64,000 nucleotides of DNA from positions 96,001 through 160,000 of the forward strand of contig JAEOSZ010000031.1 in assembly GCA_016840095.1 (NCBI GenBank), read 5' to 3'. The position numbers were made by a program, and so were the translations under genes. The notes beneath the pieces were generated by a model, which did no database searches, had not been told where the DNA came from, and saw only the letters and a list, made by a program, of their open reading frames with translations. This document shows positions 4,610 to 11,902 of the stretch, one piece after another. The DNA is from Candidatus Heimdallarchaeota archaeon (GTDB lineage Archaea > Asgardarchaeota > Heimdallarchaeia > Heimdallarchaeales > Heimdallarchaeaceae). Each line of letters begins with the position of its first letter. The stretch's first letter is position 1.

Positions 4610-7129
4610 ATGTCTAAGAGAATGCGTTTGGCAAGGAGGTTGACCATATACATTGTTTTGGTTCTCTTCATTTTGATGTTTTTGATAAATGGAACCATCA
4701 TTTTGGTAATGGAATTAAGGATAAAGAATATATCACAAGAAGCCTCAGAAGAATATTTGCAGGCCAAAATACAAAGTATGAATGTTTCTACTTACCAGTT
4801 TGTTCAGTCGTTCGATCATCTCGTAGGAGGACTGAAATTAGAATTAAATAACACTGTTATGACAATTAGAAATCAACTTTTTTCTAATGAAGCTAACAAC
4901 ATATATGAGCATAGTTCGATCATGTTCAATGATACAGACGAGTATGTTTATGTAAATGCATCACTAGAGATGGAAGTAGATAGAGAAGACAATCTAGGCT
5001 TTTATGACTATGATAACAATGGGATAAATGATTTTGAAACTACTGGAAGTTCTCTATACGGTGATGTTGATTCTCAACTTAATGTGTCTGGTGAATTCTA
5101 TTTACAAGTAAACGCTTCTTTTGAAGGTGAACTCTCTAACCAAAGTTCAGTGCTAATTTATGCACATAGAGGTGATGAAGTTCTAACCATCAACATAACT
5201 GAATACTATATTAACGATTATTCAAACTCCTTCAATAATCAATTTCTGAATCTATGGAATCAAGATAATTACACCTTTCCCTTGGAGTTAGAGGAGGAAC
5301 TAACATTACTTGATGTAGATTATCTAGATACATTTTTCTTGATAAAAGAACCTTATACAGATACTAATTGTTCAATAGTTTCTAGCGGTCTAAAATCCCG
5401 AATTGAGGGATGTATTAATGGAACTTTGTTTGGACAATATAATGGGCTAATTAGAGGAAACTTAAACGGTACAGCTTCTGGTTTCATCGATACCAGACCA
5501 AAAGATATGTATGATATGATGCTCCCTCTATTGAATCCAGTTTTACAGTGGGTTTACTTTGCAACTCCAAATTATATTCTTATTTTTCCATGGTTTCCTG
5601 ATTATGGAAATTCATCTCCTTTAGGACTATCTGCTGACTTCGATTGGACTAGAAGACCTTGGTATAGTGAATTACATGCTGCCGAAGATGCATCTACAAA
5701 TAAAGGATTAGAAAGTCATTTTTCAGATCTTGGTGTTGACTATGTACATCAAAATATCTTCATCTCTCTTGGACAAGCAGTTTACAATGAAACAAGTGAT
5801 TTTCAAGGATTTTGGGTCTTAGACCTTAACCTCGATTACTTGATGAATACACTAGAGCTAAGAATAACTGATGATGATTATTCATTGATAATAAATGTAG
5901 ACAAGGAAATACTATTATCTCCACAATATGCAGCGAATGTTTCAAGAAAACCAAAAGAAGAATTCCCAACTGAAAACATGGAAGATTATGAGAATCCTGA
6001 TCTTCAAGAATGTGTAAATGATGTAATAAATTTCCAAACAGGATATAGAATATTTACACACAATGAGACTCTTTATTTGTTATTGTATCAGCCAATTTAC
6101 TCAATACCCTGGTTCATGTTACATTTTTCACCTTTTGACTTAGTAATGGAAGACTTTGATCCAATTTTAGATACACTCCTGAAAAATATGAGATCCTTAG
6201 AAGTTGTGCTAATAATTGTTTCTATATCAATTATTGGTTTTGTTGGAACAGTATCATTATTCTTTGCTGTTAAGTTCACAAATTATGCTGTAACACTACT
6301 TAACGGAATGAAAGCCATTTCGGATGGAGATTTCAGTGTAAGTTTTGATGTTTCAGAAAAACGTCGGCTTAATGAAGTAAGTGAAGTGTATTTTGCTTTT
6401 GAGGAAATGGCTCTCAAACTTGATGAATCAATTAGAAAAGAGAGAGAGTCAGCTCATTTGGCTGAGCTTGCAATGGACTTGTTCACTCACGATTTGAGTA
6501 ATTATCATCAAGCAATACTTGGATACTTAGAACTAGCAAAAATGAATGGTCTTGATTCTAAAGAAAATCTGAAACACATTGATCAATCTATACGAGTCTT
6601 GAAGAGAGCAGATGAAGTTAAGGATAGAATAAGAAAACTAAGTGGTCTGGAAAAATTCTCTGAACCTTTCATTCAAAGAACTCTAGGATCTTATATTGAT
6701 AGTGCGATTACAACAATAGAAAAAACTTATCCTGATTATATTATAACTATTGTTCGAGACTTCGATTCTAAAATAGAGATTACTGCAAATGAATTCATTG
6801 AAGATGTTTTTACAAATATTTTTGAAAATTCTATCCATTCTGCAAAAAATCATCAGATAGACTTCAAGATAGCAGCTACAAGAACAAAGAAAAACCAAAA
6901 GAATTTCTGGGAGATTTCTATTGAAGATAATGGAAAAGGAATCTCTGACGAAAGAAAAGAACAAATTCTTAGCAGTTTTGAAACAGGACAGAGAATACGG
7001 GGGCTAGGAATGATGTTTATCTATCGAATTGTCAAAGCATATGAAGGTAGTATACGACTAGAAGATAGAATAGAGGGAGATTATTCACAAGGAGCAAAAA
7101 TCATCTTCAGTATAAGAGATTACGAATAA
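4610..7129 (+). CDS. Membrane sensor histidine kinase (extracellular Cache-like, HAMP, HisKA, HATPase)
   Basis: Two TMs, DWTRRPWY Cache motif, HAMP, H-box FTHDLSN, N-box NIFENS, DNGKGI, GLG. Confidence 0.92.
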   Translation: MSKRMRLARRLTIYIVLVLFILMFLINGTIILVMELRIKNISQEASEEYLQAKIQSMNVSTYQFVQSFDHLVGGLKLELNNTVMTIRNQLFSNEANNIYEHSSIMFNDTDEYVYVNASLEMEVDREDNLGFYDYDNNGINDFETTGSSLYGDVDSQLNVSGEFYLQVNASFEGELSNQSSVLIYAHRGDEVLTINITEYYINDYSNSFNNQFLNLWNQDNYTFPLELEEELTLLDVDYLDTFFLIKEPYTDTNCSIVSSGLKSRIEGCINGTLFGQYNGLIRGNLNGTASGFIDTRPKDMYDMMLPLLNPVLQWVYFATPNYILIFPWFPDYGNSSPLGLSADFDWTRRPWYSELHAAEDASTNKGLESHFSDLGVDYVHQNIFISLGQAVYNETSDFQGFWVLDLNLDYLMNTLELRITDDDYSLIINVDKEILLSPQYAANVSRKPKEEFPTENMEDYENPDLQECVNDVINFQTGYRIFTHNETLYLLLYQPIYSIPWFMLHFSPFDLVMEDFDPILDTLLKNMRSLEVVLIIVSISIIGFVGTVSLFFAVKFTNYAVTLLNGMKAISDGDFSVSFDVSEKRRLNEVSEVYFAFEEMALKLDESIRKERESAHLAELAMDLFTHDLSNYHQAILGYLELAKMNGLDSKENLKHIDQSIRVLKRADEVKDRIRKLSGLEKFSEPFIQRTLGSYIDSAITTIEKTYPDYIITIVRDFDSKIEITANEFIEDVFTNIFENSIHSAKNHQIDFKIAATRTKKNQKNFWEISIEDNGKGISDERKEQILSSFETGQRIRGLGMMFIYRIVKAYEGSIRLEDRIEGDYSQGAKIIFSIRDYE

Positions 7130-7585: not shown

Positions 7586-8650
7586 ATGAGTTACGAAATA
7601 AATGAAGAATTCTTAGAAAAACTAGTAACAACACCACGAGCTACAGGGTATGAATTCCCAGCTCAAGTTGTTATGAAAGAATACTTAGAGAATGATGTTG
7701 ATAAAGTAAAGGTGGATAATGTAGGTAACTTGTATGCTATAATAAATCCAGAAAGTCCTTTCAAAATTATGCTGGCCGGTCATATTGACCAGATAGGTTT
7801 CCAAATCTCCCACATAGATGATAATGGGTATCTGTGGATACAGCCCTTGGGTGGATTTGATACTTCAACAATCCCAGGAAAAAGAGTTAGAGTTATTTCT
7901 GAAAAAGGAGAATTTCTTGGTGTTTTAGGAAAAAAAGCAATCCATTTAATGAAACCAGATGAAAGGAAAAAAGCTCCAGAAATGGAGAAACTTTTCATAG
8001 ACATTGGTGCTAAGGATAAGGAGGAAGCTCTAACTAAAGTAGATGTTGGAGACTTTGCCGTTTGGGACTATGGATATCAGAGATTAGGTGATAATAACTT
8101 CGCAGTATCCTCAGGTTTTGATGATGCTATAGGTTCTTTTATTGTTGCAGAAATAATGAAAGAACTAGCGAAGGATAAAAGCTTCTATGCTGGAGTATAT
8201 GGTGTATCTACAGTACAGGAAGAAATTGGTCTTAGAGGTGCTCATGTAGCAGCTGAAAAGATCAAACCAGATGTAGGTATTGCATTTGATGTAGGTTTTG
8301 CTGCAGATGCTCCAGAAATCGAGAAAAAGATGGTTGGAGATACAAAACTTGGAGGAGGACCTATTATTTCAATGGGACCAAATTTCAACCCAGTAGTTGT
8401 TAAAAAGTTCTTTAAACTAGCTGAAGAAACAGATATACCTTATCAGAAACATGCAGCAAATAGGGGAACTGGAACAGATGCAAATGCTATCCAATTATCA
8501 GGAGCTGCAACTGGTCTATTAGGGATTCCTAACAGATACATGCATACAGCTTCTGAAGTTATAAGCCTAGATGATATAAAAAATATCATTAATCTGGTTG
8601 TAGTATTCATTAAATCAATAAAAGAAGGAGATAATTTCTTACCTCTTTAA
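7586..8650 (+). CDS. M42 family (TET-like) aminopeptidase
   Basis: AGHIDQIG, FDD, VQEEIGLRGA, GTDA, RYMHT. Confidence 0.93.
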   Translation: MSYEINEEFLEKLVTTPRATGYEFPAQVVMKEYLENDVDKVKVDNVGNLYAIINPESPFKIMLAGHIDQIGFQISHIDDNGYLWIQPLGGFDTSTIPGKRVRVISEKGEFLGVLGKKAIHLMKPDERKKAPEMEKLFIDIGAKDKEEALTKVDVGDFAVWDYGYQRLGDNNFAVSSGFDDAIGSFIVAEIMKELAKDKSFYAGVYGVSTVQEEIGLRGAHVAAEKIKPDVGIAFDVGFAADAPEIEKKMVGDTKLGGGPIISMGPNFNPVVVKKFFKLAEETDIPYQKHAANRGTGTDANAIQLSGAATGLLGIPNRYMHTASEVISLDDIKNIINLVVVFIKSIKEGDNFLPL

Positions 8651-8663: not shown

Positions 8664-9500
8664 CTATTCTATTAACATTGTATAGTCAAAATTGGTAACT
8701 GAATGGGTTAATGCTCCAGAAGATATTAGGTCTACGCCTTCTAAAGCATATGAACTGAGATTTTCAAGATTTATATTACCTGATAGTTCAATTAATGAGT
8801 CGTTTTTGATTGACTTAACCTTAGGAATTGTTTTCCTTGCTAGTTCGGGTGAAAAATTATCTAACATAATTATATCTGCCCCAGCATTTGCTGCTTCCAA
8901 AGCTTGATCTTCATTTTGAACTTCAACTTCAATCTTTTTGCTAAAGCTTGTCTCACTTTTAGCTTTTTGAATAGCTTCTGTTAACGATCTAAAGCTTCTA
9001 AGATGGTTTTCTTTCAAAAGAACATTGTCCGATAAATTAAATCTGTGAGTATCCCCTCCTCCAATAACTACAGCATATTTATCGTATTTACCCAAACCAG
9101 GAACTACTTTTCTAGTAGCACAAATTCTAAGACTTGGATTGGTTTTTTGAGCAATTTCAGCCATCTTAGAAGTTTGAGTTGCAATTCCTGAAAGTCTTCC
9201 AAGTATATTAAGAGAAACTCTTTCAGCTTGTAGAAGACTGAGTATATCTCCTTTAACAATTGCAACAGCTGTTTTCGGTGAGACACTTTCTCCTTCATTT
9301 ACTAGTATTTCACACTCTGCACCTAAGAATTCAAAAATGCGTTTAACAAAAAGGAGACCTGCAACAATACCTGCTTGTTTAGTATAGATTTTACCTTCAG
9401 CCTTTTTACTTGGCAACAAAGATGTTGTTACATCCCAATAAGGAATATCTTCCTCAATCCATTTTTTAATGTCTTCATCAACTAAAACTAAGGGGATCAT
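8664..9500 (-). CDS. nadC: Quinolinate phosphoribosyltransferase
   Basis: AERVSLN, ATRK, HRFNLSD, LKENH, IEVEV, IIMLDN, SGNI, GALTHS. Confidence 0.96.
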   Translation of the reverse strand: MIPLVLVDEDIKKWIEEDIPYWDVTTSLLPSKKAEGKIYTKQAGIVAGLLFVKRIFEFLGAECEILVNEGESVSPKTAVAIVKGDILSLLQAERVSLNILGRLSGIATQTSKMAEIAQKTNPSLRICATRKVVPGLGKYDKYAVVIGGGDTHRFNLSDNVLLKENHLRSFRSLTEAIQKAKSETSFSKKIEVEVQNEDQALEAANAGADIIMLDNFSPELARKTIPKVKSIKNDSLIELSGNINLENLSSYALEGVDLISSGALTHSVTNFDYTMLIE

Positions 9501-9518
9501 CTGTTTTTGACTCTCTTC

Positions 9519-10544
9519 TTAATATTTTAGCATATTGTTTACTGCTCTAAAAGCCTTTTTACGAATTTCTTCATCTAGTTCGATAACATTATCATCAGTA
9601 GGTTTTTCCAGAGCTTTCCAGGTAGCAAAAAGATCATTTCTTTTCATACTTATACAGATCATTTTACTATCTTCAAACTGAACATCAGGAAATTCAATTT
9701 TCATACGATCTATGAAACCTTGTTCAGTTAGAAACAATACTTTATCACCCTTAGAAGCTTTGGCAGCATAACGATGCATGTCACCAGTTCCACCGGCATA
9801 ATCAACAGTTTCTATGATTTCTGGTCTGCATTCAAAATGAGCAAAAGTTTTAGTTTCTTTATCTTGAATAAGTCTTTCTAATCTTTTCATAGTGAGTGCG
9901 TGATGAGTTCTACAAAAACCATGCCATGTGATAATGTTCTTTCCTGTCAATTTTGCTAGATTGTGTCCCATATTTTCATCAGGGATAAAGATAATTGTAT
10001 CCTCTTCTAAGCTTTCAATGATTCTGCGAGCATTTGCTGATGTACAACAAATATCTGATTCAGCTTTAACATCTGCATTAGTGTTTACATAGCATACAAC
10101 TGGAGCACCAGGATTTTCATCCTTTAGTTTCTTGACATCTTCTCCGGTAATTGAATCTGCTAAAGTACAATCTCTCCCTCTTGCTGGAACAAGAACTAAC
10201 TTTTCTGGATTGAGTATCTTTACAGACTCAGCCATAAAATCAACACCACAGAACAAGATTCGTTTTTCTGGAATTTCAGTTGCTTTTTTAGCAAGAGCTA
10301 ACGAATCACCTACAATATCAGCAATTCCGAAAACTATATCTGCTGTTTGATAAGAATGTGCTAAGATCTTGAATCCTTTCTCCTTCTTTAATTGGTTAAT
10401 CCTGTAAGTAAATGGAGCAATTGATTCACAGGCACTTCTAGTCCAGCCTAGAGGATTCAATTTAACATATAATCTCTCAACTTCTTCCTCTAGTAAACCG
10501 AACTCCTCTCTTCGTATTTCAGGAGTTTCTTCTACAACTACCAT
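9519..10544 (-). CDS. nadA: Quinolinate synthase
   Basis: LAHSYQ, GDSL, FCGVDFMAE, CTLAD, YVNT, CTSAN, FCRTH, HFEC, CISMK. Confidence 0.95.
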   Translation of the reverse strand: MVVVEETPEIRREEFGLLEEEVERLYVKLNPLGWTRSACESIAPFTYRINQLKKEKGFKILAHSYQTADIVFGIADIVGDSLALAKKATEIPEKRILFCGVDFMAESVKILNPEKLVLVPARGRDCTLADSITGEDVKKLKDENPGAPVVCYVNTNADVKAESDICCTSANARRIIESLEEDTIIFIPDENMGHNLAKLTGKNIITWHGFCRTHHALTMKRLERLIQDKETKTFAHFECRPEIIETVDYAGGTGDMHRYAAKASKGDKVLFLTEQGFIDRMKIEFPDVQFEDSKMICISMKRNDLFATWKALEKPTDDNVIELDEEIRKKAFRAVNNMLKY

Positions 10545-10660
10545 CTCAACCGGACTACTCTTTTAAGAATCGCATTTAAAGACTGTTCGTTTAAGGACAA
10601 AATTGAACAATGATTTACACTATAAACCTTAAAACCTTTGAAAAATTGACTCTTAAGACA

Positions 10661-10708
10661 TTTGCTAGTATACTATAAGCAAAAATTGCCTATTCTTTTC
10701 GGAGAAAA
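10661..10708. promoter_or_regulatory. Palindromes in the nadA / NADK-HTH divergent intergenic region (candidate operators)
   Basis: Perfect TAGTATACTA (10666-10675) flanked by tttgc...gcaaa; TTTTC-gga-GAAAA (10696-10708). Confidence 0.3.
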
Positions 10709-10855
10709 CGACAAAGGAAGTAAGTTTGGATGTCTCTAAATACGATATGTAAAATTCATATGTAGGAGAAATTCTTCATTTTCACTGTTTTCTATGGTAA
10801 AACTATAAATAAATATGAGATATTATTATTAAGCTAAGTATATGTTGATGGAATA

Positions 10856-11902
10856 ATGATAATAGCTCTATATATTGCAAATGAATCCCTCTCAAAAAAA
10901 TTTGCAAATACTATAAAGGATACACTGGTAGAATTAGATGCAGAAGTAGAAATTATCGAATTTGAAGATGAGATTCTGAATGAAGAAAACTGGGAAAATC
11001 TGATGAATGATTTTTCTAATCAAAAAGCTAACTGCATTATTTCTGTAGGTGATACTGGAACATTTCTTAGAGCAATCTTTCTATCAAGATCTTCGATTCC
11101 AGTGGTAGCTGCATCATCTGAAAGTGTGAGTTTTTTCACTGAAATAAGTCCGATTAACATGAGTTATACTTTAGCTAGTATACTTAATCGGAAATATGAT
11201 GTTGACAATTATCATAGAGTAGTCTTCCAAGATTCAGGAAACAATATTCCAATTCCAGCTTTAAATGAAATCGCAATTTTTCCAAAAGATTCTGCACTAC
11301 TAATGAACTATACTTTGATTATTGATAAGAATCAACTCTATCGAGGAAGAGCAGATGGTCTTATTGTATCAACATCTTTGGGAAGCACAGGTTATGCTCT
11401 ATCTAGTGGGGGACCGATTGCATTTGGAAATCCAGATGTGCTGATAATTGTTCCAGTTAACCCTCTAAATAAAGAACACATTCCATTAGTTGTTCCAATT
11501 GATTCGGAAATTAAATTGGTGAATTTGCGCTCTAGATCACCTCTTGAAGCTATTATTGATGGACAAATGAGGATAGGGATTGATGAAGAAATATTAGTTA
11601 GAAAATCAGCTTCTACAGCTAGAATTATTAGATTCCAAGCAAAGAAAAACATACTTGCTAAATTGAGAAACAGACTAGTTGAATTGGATCTTCGAACTTT
11701 GGAGCGTGTCCCTCCTTCAGCAAAATACATCTTTAAATTGCTTTTAACAGAAGGGGAAATGACTCAAAAGGACTTAATTGAGAGCACAGGATTACCAAAT
11801 AGAACAGTTCGTAATGCACTTTCTATACTCAAGGAAAAAGGTGTGATTAATCAAAGACCTCACTTGAGAGATGCTAGACAATCAATCTACTTTGTTGAAT
11901 GA
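10856..11902 (+). CDS. NAD kinase-like protein fused to C-terminal winged helix-turn-helix
   Basis: ALNEI and ADGLIVSTSLGSTGYALSSGGP NADK motifs; GGDGT replaced by GDTGT; C-terminal PPSAK...MTQKDL...RTVRNAL...DARQ MarR-like wHTH. Confidence 0.85.
   Translation: MIIALYIANESLSKKFANTIKDTLVELDAEVEIIEFEDEILNEENWENLMNDFSNQKANCIISVGDTGTFLRAIFLSRSSIPVVAASSESVSFFTEISPINMSYTLASILNRKYDVDNYHRVVFQDSGNNIPIPALNEIAIFPKDSALLMNYTLIIDKNQLYRGRADGLIVSTSLGSTGYALSSGGPIAFGNPDVLIIVPVNPLNKEHIPLVVPIDSEIKLVNLRSRSPLEAIIDGQMRIGIDEEILVRKSASTARIIRFQAKKNILAKLRNRLVELDLRTLERVPPSAKYIFKLLLTEGEMTQKDLIESTGLPNRTVRNALSILKEKGVINQRPHLRDARQSIYFVE

Follow-up and report, generated by a model that had tools for sequence, protein, structure and literature searches.

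A NAD kinase-fold protein with a C-terminal winged helix as a candidate NAD(P)-sensing regulator of nadA-nadC in Heimdallarchaeaceae

In a 64-kb stretch of DNA (the window; G000:C163:96001-160000) from a Heimdallarchaeaceae metagenome-assembled genome (MAG; 3.44 Mb, 33% G+C, 89% complete), we observe a gene in which a NAD kinase (NADK) fold is joined at its C terminus to a domain of the winged helix-turn-helix (wHTH) type. It lies head-to-head with nadA and nadC across a spacer of 311 bp (positions 10545-10855), an arrangement that an earlier note, made from the sequence alone, had pointed out and with which the open reading frame (ORF) coordinates agree. Judged from its sequence, the encoded 348-aa protein is likely an NADK-derived, NAD(P)-sensing transcription factor for nadA-nadC. 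As in regulators of the RbkR, NadR, and NrtR kind, an enzyme-type ligand domain, a DNA-binding domain, and proposed targets from the same pathway with a shared dyad are all present.

Both domains of the NADK fold are recognized by Pfam above cut-off (NAD_kinase, PF01513, residues 35-114, E 2e-8; NAD_kinase_C, PF20143, residues 136-259, E 5.5e-20), followed by HTH_24 at residues 292-331 (E 3e-5; 23.8 bits against a cut-off of 21.9); matches to MarR_2, TrmB, and ArsR (HTH_5) stay below their cut-offs. An AlphaFold2 model computed with 98 homologues (mean pLDDT, 88) contains the NADK fold and a winged helix, together with a linker helix at residues 266-281 that is of low confidence at 271-277. 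When this model was used in a Foldseek search, the top matches were all NADKs (TM score by target, 0.78-0.86; probability, 1.00). The C-terminal domain displays an H-H-H-beta-beta topology, with helices at residues 287-299, 304-311, and 315-328 and strands at 331-335 and 343-347 (pLDDT, 81-92), and the PDB sequences closest to it are wHTH proteins, with E values no better than 0.04-0.6.

Aligned with HMMER to the NADK of A. fulgidus (1SUW/1Z0S), the query loop isvGDTGTflr falls on vsvGGDGTilr, the second Gly being replaced by Asp and the catalytic Asp by Thr. The GGDG motif defines NADKs, and its Asp is the catalytic center at the ribose 2' position (PMC9763689). The second loop of the N-domain, GxNxGxLGFL, is lost as well, with VAASSESVSFFT (vaassesvsfft) aligned on GINTGRVGLLT of 1SUW. 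The NE, DG..ST..GSTGY..S.GGP, and DG motifs are kept whole, and N137, E138, D167, G168, T173, G176, S177, T178, Y180, S183, and G186 are all present; in NADKs, the NE/D motif and conserved region II bind NAD, region II contacting adenine and nicotinamide (PMC9763689). The earlier note had described the NAD-binding motifs as intact, the GGDGT loop as changed to GDTGT, and a complete MarR-like wHTH as appended. The first two observations hold in the alignment, with Thr67 on the catalytic Asp, and the third in the above-cut-off HTH_24 match and the winged helix modelled at residues 287-347. On this evidence, the Heimdall fusion protein is very likely catalytically inactive. The NCBIfam NADK equivalog score is uninformative in this respect, since not only the fusion protein (146.5 against a cut-off of 326) but also the canonical paralogue (195.6) falls below it.

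Across 98 family members, N137, D167, G168, G176, S177, T178, Y180, S183, G186, D235, G236, and R239 are invariant, E138 and T173 being the pocket-motif residues without invariance. Within the GGDGT loop, Gly at position 65 is invariant and is followed by Asp (58 members), Thr (17), or Gly (6) at position 66, by Asp (76), Thr (18), Ala (2), or Ser (2) at position 67, and by Gly (27), Asn (27), or Arg (20) at position 68; a single member has a perfect GGDGT. In the family consensus, the GxNxGxLGFL loop is replaced by S..SF(L/F). Among the 22 of 98 members without Asp, all those with a GxxGT-type loop (GDTGT, GGTGT, GDAGT, GDSGT, and GHTGT) are Heimdall-type sequences, and Asp loss is thus a feature of the Heimdallarchaeaceae clade, whereas the loss of glycines in this loop is family-wide. 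Since most non-Heimdall members retain the Asp, catalytic loss is not a property of the whole family, and inactivity of the family at large is not supported; in other lineages, the protein may be bifunctional.

The earlier note had proposed a search for a separate canonical NADK, and such an enzyme, of 284 aa and with GGDGT, GINCGKVGFLTE, ND, and DG..SIGSSAYGLSAGG, is encoded in the same genome (G000:C152, L001 1093-1947), so that the fusion is not its sole NADK. A second, canonical-type NADK match was obtained in at least 22 of the 26 fusion-holding Heimdallarchaeaceae genomes (this one counted), and a separate NADK is also found in H. aukensis, one Thermofilaceae MAG, and V. distributa. Because the clade has lost the catalytic Asp and the phosphate loops, NADP synthesis would be left to the separate canonical enzyme. 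We consider it improbable that the protein is instead bifunctional, combining an active NAD(H) kinase with a regulator in the manner of RbkR and NadR. There are precedents for such proteins (PMC5397151), 76/98 members keep the Asp, one of them within the perfect loop, and in one Asgard MAG of unknown completeness (G084) the fusion is the sole NADK homologue found. In the present protein, however, Thr stands at the Asp position, and changes affect glycine positions two and four as well as the GxNxGxLGFL loop; moreover, this genome and nearly all others tested have a canonical NADK, which in one locus (L146) lies beside the fusion itself. The earlier note had inferred either an NAD(P)-sensing regulator or a bifunctional kinase/repressor; the former is supported by the separate NADK, the linkage, and the conserved dyad, and the latter has become less likely for this protein. 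In addition, the genome encodes two more NADK-family paralogues of 371 and 388 aa (L003 1489-2604 and L004 1477-2643, both on the minus strand; G000:C152 and C93), which have a whole GGDGT and a DAGK_cat-like N-domain and are of the AcoX/'ATP-NAD kinase family' type.

Modelled as a homodimer, the fusion protein attains an ipSAE of 0.51, against 0.00 for the best control; 20 of 30 proteins whose structures were solved as pairs reach the mark used for this score, as does 1 of 23 with structures solved as single chains. At least 90% of contacts are shared between the runs, the partner pLDDT is at least 79, and the modelled interface (residues 156-217) is the NADK C-domain interface. Because solved NADK dimers already exist, the model may have passed through likeness and not as an independent result. 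NADKs occur as tetramers as well, a state that NADPH promotes in the mammalian enzyme (PMC9763689).

The fusion is carried by Heimdallarchaeaceae, other Asgard MAGs, Vulcanisaeta, Thermofilaceae and other Thermoprotei, Woesearchaeota, Parvarchaeota, and marine metagenomes. Full-length relatives across these groups have 317-357 aa, 32-40% identity, and the same C-terminal wHTH; the Heimdallarchaeaceae orthologues have 348 aa and 55-93% identity. Such proteins are annotated, for example in Vulcanisaeta, as 'ATP-NAD/AcoX kinase' or 'winged helix-turn-helix transcriptional regulator', and the NADK-HTH fusions that the earlier note had mentioned in archaeal annotations thus do exist. Within Heimdallarchaeia, 25 of the 30 further genomes from the family of the window carry the gene, and in the other six families 1 of 52 scored genomes gave a match extending into the wHTH (G040, partial, residues 90-347). 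The wHTH signature PPSAK..K.L..EG..TQKE....T.LP.RTVR.AL..L..KGLI.....LRD.RQ.IY is kept family-wide, and P287, S288, A289, K290, L313, R316, T317, V318, R319, A321, and L322 vary little or not at all between phyla.

Canonical NADKs for an outgroup were taken from a locus search with the pattern GST[AG]YA.S, which is common to all NADKs; 76 of the 80 loci held canonical NADKs, and fusions were found only in L010, L011, L012, and L020. In a maximum-likelihood tree of the NADK domains, a single branch (SH-aLRT, 98) splits 49 fusions from 39 canonical NADKs, which fits a single origin of the fusion family. The last 88 residues, used as a query, matched 750 proteins at E <=1e-3, and about 37 of the best 150 were fusions. 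The rest of these 150 are mostly stand-alone wHTH proteins of 72-130 aa with 41-57% identity, and a few show other architectures, such as a 684-aa protein with the wHTH at its N terminus and a 537-aa protein with seven repeats. The wHTH appears to be a widespread archaeal module that became joined to NADK a single time.

The linkage to nad genes, whose conservation the earlier note had put forward as a check, is kept both inside the family and in other phyla. The fusion gene and nadA are divergent in 23 of 26 Heimdallarchaeaceae loci, and in 8 of 10 distant loci NAD genes adjoin the former, the two exceptions being Vulcanisaeta (L090 and L020), where it has no neighboring NAD genes. In the window, nadC follows 18 bp downstream of nadA and the two are presumably co-transcribed; the same gene order is repeated in orthologous and distant loci. 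Divergent from the fusion gene we observe nadA-nadC in Thermofilaceae (L011), nadA-nadC-aspartate dehydrogenase in Thermoprotei (L148), a metagenome (L091), and a marine locus (L093), and nadA in another metagenome (L147). Two Asgard loci (L145 and L012) have a 442-aa nicotinate phosphoribosyltransferase (NAPRT)-like gene immediately downstream. In a DPANN (Parvarchaeota) contig (L146 4835-5000 and 5971-9968), the fusion gene abuts a complete salvage cluster, in which a canonical NADK directly beside the fusion is accompanied by nicotinamide mononucleotide (NMN) adenylyltransferase (NMNAT)-like, NAPRT, pncA, and nadE genes; the sequence upstream of the fusion gene in this locus seems to resemble a tRNA gene. 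In the draft genome of V. distributa JCM 11216, both the fusion gene (L020 10010-10719) and nadA are split by frameshifts (L135/L136), more likely through draft sequencing error than as pseudogenes, because the V. moutnovskia copy (328 aa) is intact.

Alignment of 23 orthologous Heimdallarchaeaceae spacers resolves five conserved blocks (Table 1), of which a distal dyad, O1, leaves the strongest footprint, with conserved arms and a variable center. A 27-nt conserved block (10582-10608) lies just upstream of the nadA TATA box, itself named from the archaeal TATA consensus, and holds a candidate second site, O2. The palindromes that the earlier note had reported in the spacer fared unevenly: an inverted-repeat search (6-nt seed, at least 10 bp) found none, and by eye we find the O1 dyad AAGCAAAAATTGCCT and TAGTATACTA, a perfect 10-bp palindrome at 10666-10675 that is not kept in relatives. 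O1-type dyads with at most one mismatch are expected 0.9 times by chance in 64 kb, so that O1 draws its weight from conservation and not from mere presence. An RNA-based control element is not supported, since Rfam returned no riboswitch or other RNA from the spacer apart from a chance snoRNA match at E 0.3, and the spacer RNA fold has a z score of -1.2.

A position weight matrix (PWM) was built from 15 distinct Heimdallarchaeaceae versions of O1 only (consensus, AGGCAAAATTTGCCT). When the 3.44-Mb genome was scanned with it, the nadA O1 scored 21.5; just two of the 16 best sites, this one included, are intergenic. Three held-out genomes separate the two genes: in G005 nadA is 6 kb from the regulator gene, and in G016 and G003 the two are on different contigs. 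In all three, O1 scores 19.9-23.1 upstream of nadA and no site is found upstream of the unlinked regulator gene; the site stays with nadA where the genes are apart and thus belongs to it. Across 44 fusion-less Heimdallarchaeia genomes, O1 scores in the 631 bp upstream of nadA have a median of 3.0 and do not exceed 11.3.

The dyad also recurs beyond Heimdallarchaeaceae, in distant phyla. In L093, L147, L148, and L145, the best PWM match of the whole 11- to 13-kb locus falls in the regulatory spacer, which makes up about 1-2% of it, and the L093 site is a perfect AGGCAAAATTTGCCT (score, 24.1). The top two spacer sites lie 30, 30, 31, and 32 bp apart in L093, L147, L148, and L091, a spacing of 29-33 bp having a probability of 0.04-0.08 at each locus in shuffled spacers. 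The stronger of the two sites in L148 and L091 lies over the ATG of the regulator gene itself. An O1-like dyad was not found upstream at L146. R316, T317, and R319 of the recognition helix are conserved across these phyla, which fits a shared site. A third operator-like site, CGGCAAAATTTACCT (PWM score, 13.2), is observed in the P0056 locus (L147 6106-6120), flanked by the regulator gene on one side and a LarA-like gene on the other; since the cofactor of LarA derives from nicotinic acid adenine dinucleotide (NaAD), the regulon may reach beyond NAD synthesis in some lineages.

These comparisons bear on the possibility that the dyad is the site of another family-specific factor, that the fusion-nadA linkage is metabolic clustering, and that the wHTH serves to contact proteins or to bind DNA non-specifically. 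Comparing carriers of the fusion with non-carriers within Heimdallarchaeia amounts to a single phylogenetic event, and the best PWM match of the own genome is inside an ORF, as such an explanation would allow. A matrix made from Heimdallarchaeaceae alone nonetheless finds the dyad beside fusion and NAD genes at 33-40% protein identity, R316, T317, and R319 are kept across those phyla, and the divergent arrangement occurs in at least five lineages, which together make another factor highly improbable. We conclude that the fusion protein is quite probably a sequence-specific transcription factor of nadA-nadC acting via O1, as far as can be told from DNA and protein sequences.

From the center of O1 to the end of the nadA TATA box the distance is 100-103 bp (genera g1 and g2), 91-92 bp (genus g5), or 112 bp (genus g3), being about 100 bp in the own genome, and the sequence between the two is variable; O1 is separated from the regulator ATG by 153-910 bp. 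The O1-O2 distance, center to center, is 81-84 bp (g1/g2), 72-73 bp (g5), or 94 bp (g3), classes that differ from one another by roughly a turn of the helix, which with three of them is suggestive. At L093, a nadA TATA-like box and the weaker site are likewise 12 nt apart.

Because O1 keeps a fixed distance of about 100 bp upstream from the nadA TATA box and does not overlap the promoter, the site does not fix the sign of regulation. We slightly favor repression by the ligand-bound protein, activation from an upstream site being a real alternative. The ligand itself is fairly likely to be a NAD(P)-type dinucleotide, to go by the conserved NADK pocket. A transcription factor of nadA-nadC with a different logic, either an upstream activator (apo or ligand-bound) or a protein responding to an effector other than the NAD(P) end product (NaAD, NADH/NADPH redox, ATP, or ADP-ribose), seems rather unlikely. 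It would agree with the position of O1 upstream of the BRE (the transcription factor B recognition element) and TATA box of both genes, at about -130 and -150 and off the start sites, and with the L093 sites 12-16 nt upstream of two TATA-like boxes; just upstream of TATA is the usual place of archaeal activators. In addition, Thr in place of the Asp that contacts the 2'-OH could shift the preference between NAD and NADP (as may be inferred from PMC9763689). Activation is countered by the characterized NAD regulators NadR, NiaR, and NrtR, which are all repressors (PMC2330246, PMC2330245, PMC5397151), and by the stronger site over the regulator ATG in L148 and L091, as in autorepression; another effector is countered by the invariant pocket residues, which are NAD binders in NADKs.

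We propose that the NADK body would act as the sensor, having kept the dinucleotide pocket (NE, region II, and DG) and the C-domain dimer interface; in the Heimdall clade, the N-domain has given up its two glycine-rich phosphate loops and the catalytic Asp. The C-terminal winged helices of the dimer would read the dyad AGGCAAAnTTTGCCT. O1 would act with the proximal block at 10593-10607, two dimers, resembling an NADK tetramer, probably bridging both sites, as we infer from the spacing steps, the dimer model, and the tetramers of NADKs; such bridging would occlude the BRE/TATA region of nadA-nadC. The outcome would most likely be feedback, in which NAD(P) in the pocket causes the protein to bind or bridge DNA and de novo NAD synthesis is turned off. 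A bolder version, which we offer only tentatively, is that an ancient, archaea-wide family of NADK-derived factors is the missing regulator of archaeal NAD homeostasis, that its dimers, seated on a pair of dyads in helical phase (30-32 bp between them in most lineages; 72, 83, or 94 bp in Heimdallarchaeaceae), join as a tetramer on NAD(P) and loop the nadA promoter shut, and that the change from Asp to Thr was the step from a bifunctional protein to a pure sensor.

Several points weigh against an NAD(P)-sensing repressor of nadA-nadC. The case is made by computation throughout: the fold, motif states, separate NADK, linkage, nadA-tracking operator, and single clade were computed, and from these we predict DNA binding as such, the nature of the ligand, whether regulation is positive or negative, and looping or tetramerization. 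Thr or the nearby Asp could conceivably support residual activity, and the Asp is kept at the catalytic position in most non-Heimdall members (76/98 overall). O1 is off the core promoters: it precedes the inferred start of nadA by about 130 bp and that of the regulator gene by about 150 bp, a position that is unusual for archaeal repressors and fits activation equally, and the helical-phase argument is based on just three spacing classes. The O2 block scores -6.9 with the O1 PWM in the own genome, and it can for that reason be called only a putative operator. The top score in that genome (22.1; C25:33174) is inside an ORF. The other intergenic site, AGGCAAAAATAGCTT (17.2; G000:C163:170886), lies between unrelated genes, namely divergent genes for a beta-helix/NosD-like protein and an aldehyde:ferredoxin oxidoreductase, and is judged to be a chance match; the motif alone is hence not specific. 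With the O1 PWM, nadE, the canonical NADK, and the SdhA-like genes of the own genome all turned out to have no operator upstream, and since nadE and the canonical NADK have no site, the regulon seen here is one operon. The contrast between carriers and non-carriers is confounded by kinship, as one phylogenetic event, and cannot stand alone. Finally, in the two Vulcanisaeta genomes the fusion gene is away from NAD genes and no full dyad was found upstream of nadA or the fusion gene, nadA having TTTGCC half-sites only; the site may have diverged, or the protein may have another role there.

Table 1. Features of the nadA-nadC/fusion locus, with positions in the window
Feature	Position	Strand	Basis and remarks
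nadC, quinolinate phosphoribosyltransferase, 278 aa	8664-9500	-	TIGR00078, 309.6 bits against a cut-off of 198
nadA, quinolinate synthase, 341 aa, proposed target	9519-10544	-	Pfam NadA, E 4e-96; NCBIfam NF006878, 315 bits against a cut-off of 294
nadA TATA box, CTTTAAATG	10573-10581	-	About 29-37 nt before the nadA ATG; CTTTAAATA-type block invariant in 23/23 spacers
Candidate weak O2, AGGACAAAATTGAAC (family GGnCAAAATTG)	10593-10607	.	Conserved block 13 nt upstream of the nadA TATA box, 84 bp from O1
Distal dyad O1, AAGCAAAAATTGCCT (aligned as AAGCAAnnnTTGCCT), 15 bp, candidate operator	10677-10691	.	Spacer alignment
Third conserved block, palindrome CGTATTGnCAATACG in most relatives, here degenerate ATATGTAAAATTCATAT	10745-10761	.	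Spacer alignment; unlike O1
Regulator-gene TATA-like box, CTATAAATAAATA	10803-10815	+	About 45 nt before the ATG; (G)ATAAnTATAAATAA block at fixed distance from the ATG in most spacers
NADK-fold/winged-helix fusion gene, candidate regulator, 348 aa	10856-11902	+	ORF, Pfam, AlphaFold2, Foldseek
GDTGT replacing the GGDGT catalytic loop, residues 65-69	11048-11062	+	1SUW/1Z0S alignment; Thr67 at the catalytic Asp position
C-terminal wHTH, residues 286-348, recognition helix about 315-328	11711-11899	+	HTH_24, TrmB, and MarR_2 matches; AlphaFold2 topology

The third palindrome of the spacer, seen in the window and in the spacers of L096-L114, could be the site of another factor or serve the regulator gene's own control. 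On its other side, nadC is adjoined by a gene for an M42 glutamyl aminopeptidase (7586-8650), with synteny to H. aukensis and 80% identity, and upstream of that gene an 839-aa membrane sensor histidine-kinase-like protein is encoded (4610-7129).

In the own genome, neither an aspartate dehydrogenase (PF01958) nor an L-aspartate oxidase was found in the 89%-complete MAG, and the source of iminoaspartate for NadA is thus unaccounted for. Two nadB candidates (C25:5-1585 and C134:2-1153) proved to be SdhA/FrdA flavoproteins (TIGR01812 above cut-off). The archaeal NMNAT (TIGR01527) was likewise not found in this genome.

The known NAD regulators NadR, NiaR, NrtR, and NadQ are bacterial. If our reading is true, the family fills a gap in NAD regulation in Asgard archaea, Thermoproteota, DPANN, and marine archaea, and NAD kinase joins the short list of enzymes re-used as cofactor sensors. 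The widespread label 'NAD(+)/NADH kinase', a possible source of error in metabolic reconstructions where NADK genes are counted, would then be corrected. With the Asp kept in most lineages and lost in Heimdallarchaeaceae, the fusion may capture an enzyme in the act of shedding catalysis after a regulatory gain. The 348-aa protein and its 15-bp dyad form a compact, testable pair, and the pocket and DNA site could be parts for an NAD(P) biosensor. The earlier note knew of no characterized regulator of this type, and within open full texts, with most subscription journals outside this scope, we likewise found no description of an NADK-wHTH regulator or of an archaeal NAD regulator.

What seems new here is the NADK fold as the base of an enzyme-derived, cofactor-sensing transcription factor; NadR, NrtR, and NiaR share the logic and not the fold. 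The fusion protein resembles NadK/PpnK itself (EC 2.7.1.23; 1SUW/1Z0S and M. tuberculosis 1U0T/1Y3H) in the two-domain fold, the NE, region II, and DG motifs, and the predicted C-domain dimer interface. It differs from NadK in its GDTGT loop, the loss of the second Gly-rich loop, the added linker helix and wHTH, its own clade, and a location by nadA-nadC instead of that of a housekeeping singleton. Enterobacterial NadR, which combines an HTH with NMN adenylyltransferase and ribosylnicotinamide kinase, likewise couples an NAD-enzyme fold to a DNA-binding domain and represses nadA-type genes according to the NAD pool; it is bacterial, unrelated in sequence and fold, and has an N-terminal HTH and active enzyme domains. 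NrtR uses a catalytically degenerate enzyme fold (Nudix) as sensor together with a C-terminal wHTH-like domain, and comparative genomics first revealed both NrtR and NiaR, which regulate nadABC and salvage genes (PMC2330246, PMC2330245). Unlike the fusion, they are bacterial and have Nudix and 3H sensors with ADP-ribose and niacin as effectors. The sensor domains of NadR, NiaR, and NrtR (NMNAT and ribosylnicotinamide kinase; 3H; Nudix) gave no Pfam or NCBIfam match on the fusion protein, where only the generic HTH_11 appeared, below its cut-off.

The nearest analogue appears to be RbkR (PMC5397151), an archaeal one-component regulator that, like the fusion protein, combines a kinase fold with a MarR-like wHTH and controls the genes for the biosynthesis of its cofactor. 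Its operators are likewise palindromic and often paired, and it was found by the same comparative-genomic logic (PMC5397151). RbkR differs in having the fold of a CTP-dependent riboflavin kinase and an N-terminal wHTH, where the fusion has an NADK fold and a C-terminal wHTH. It is also an active kinase, the only RibK in most genomes, and experimentally validated, whereas the Heimdall fusion has lost the catalytic Asp, coexists with a separate NADK, and is a prediction.

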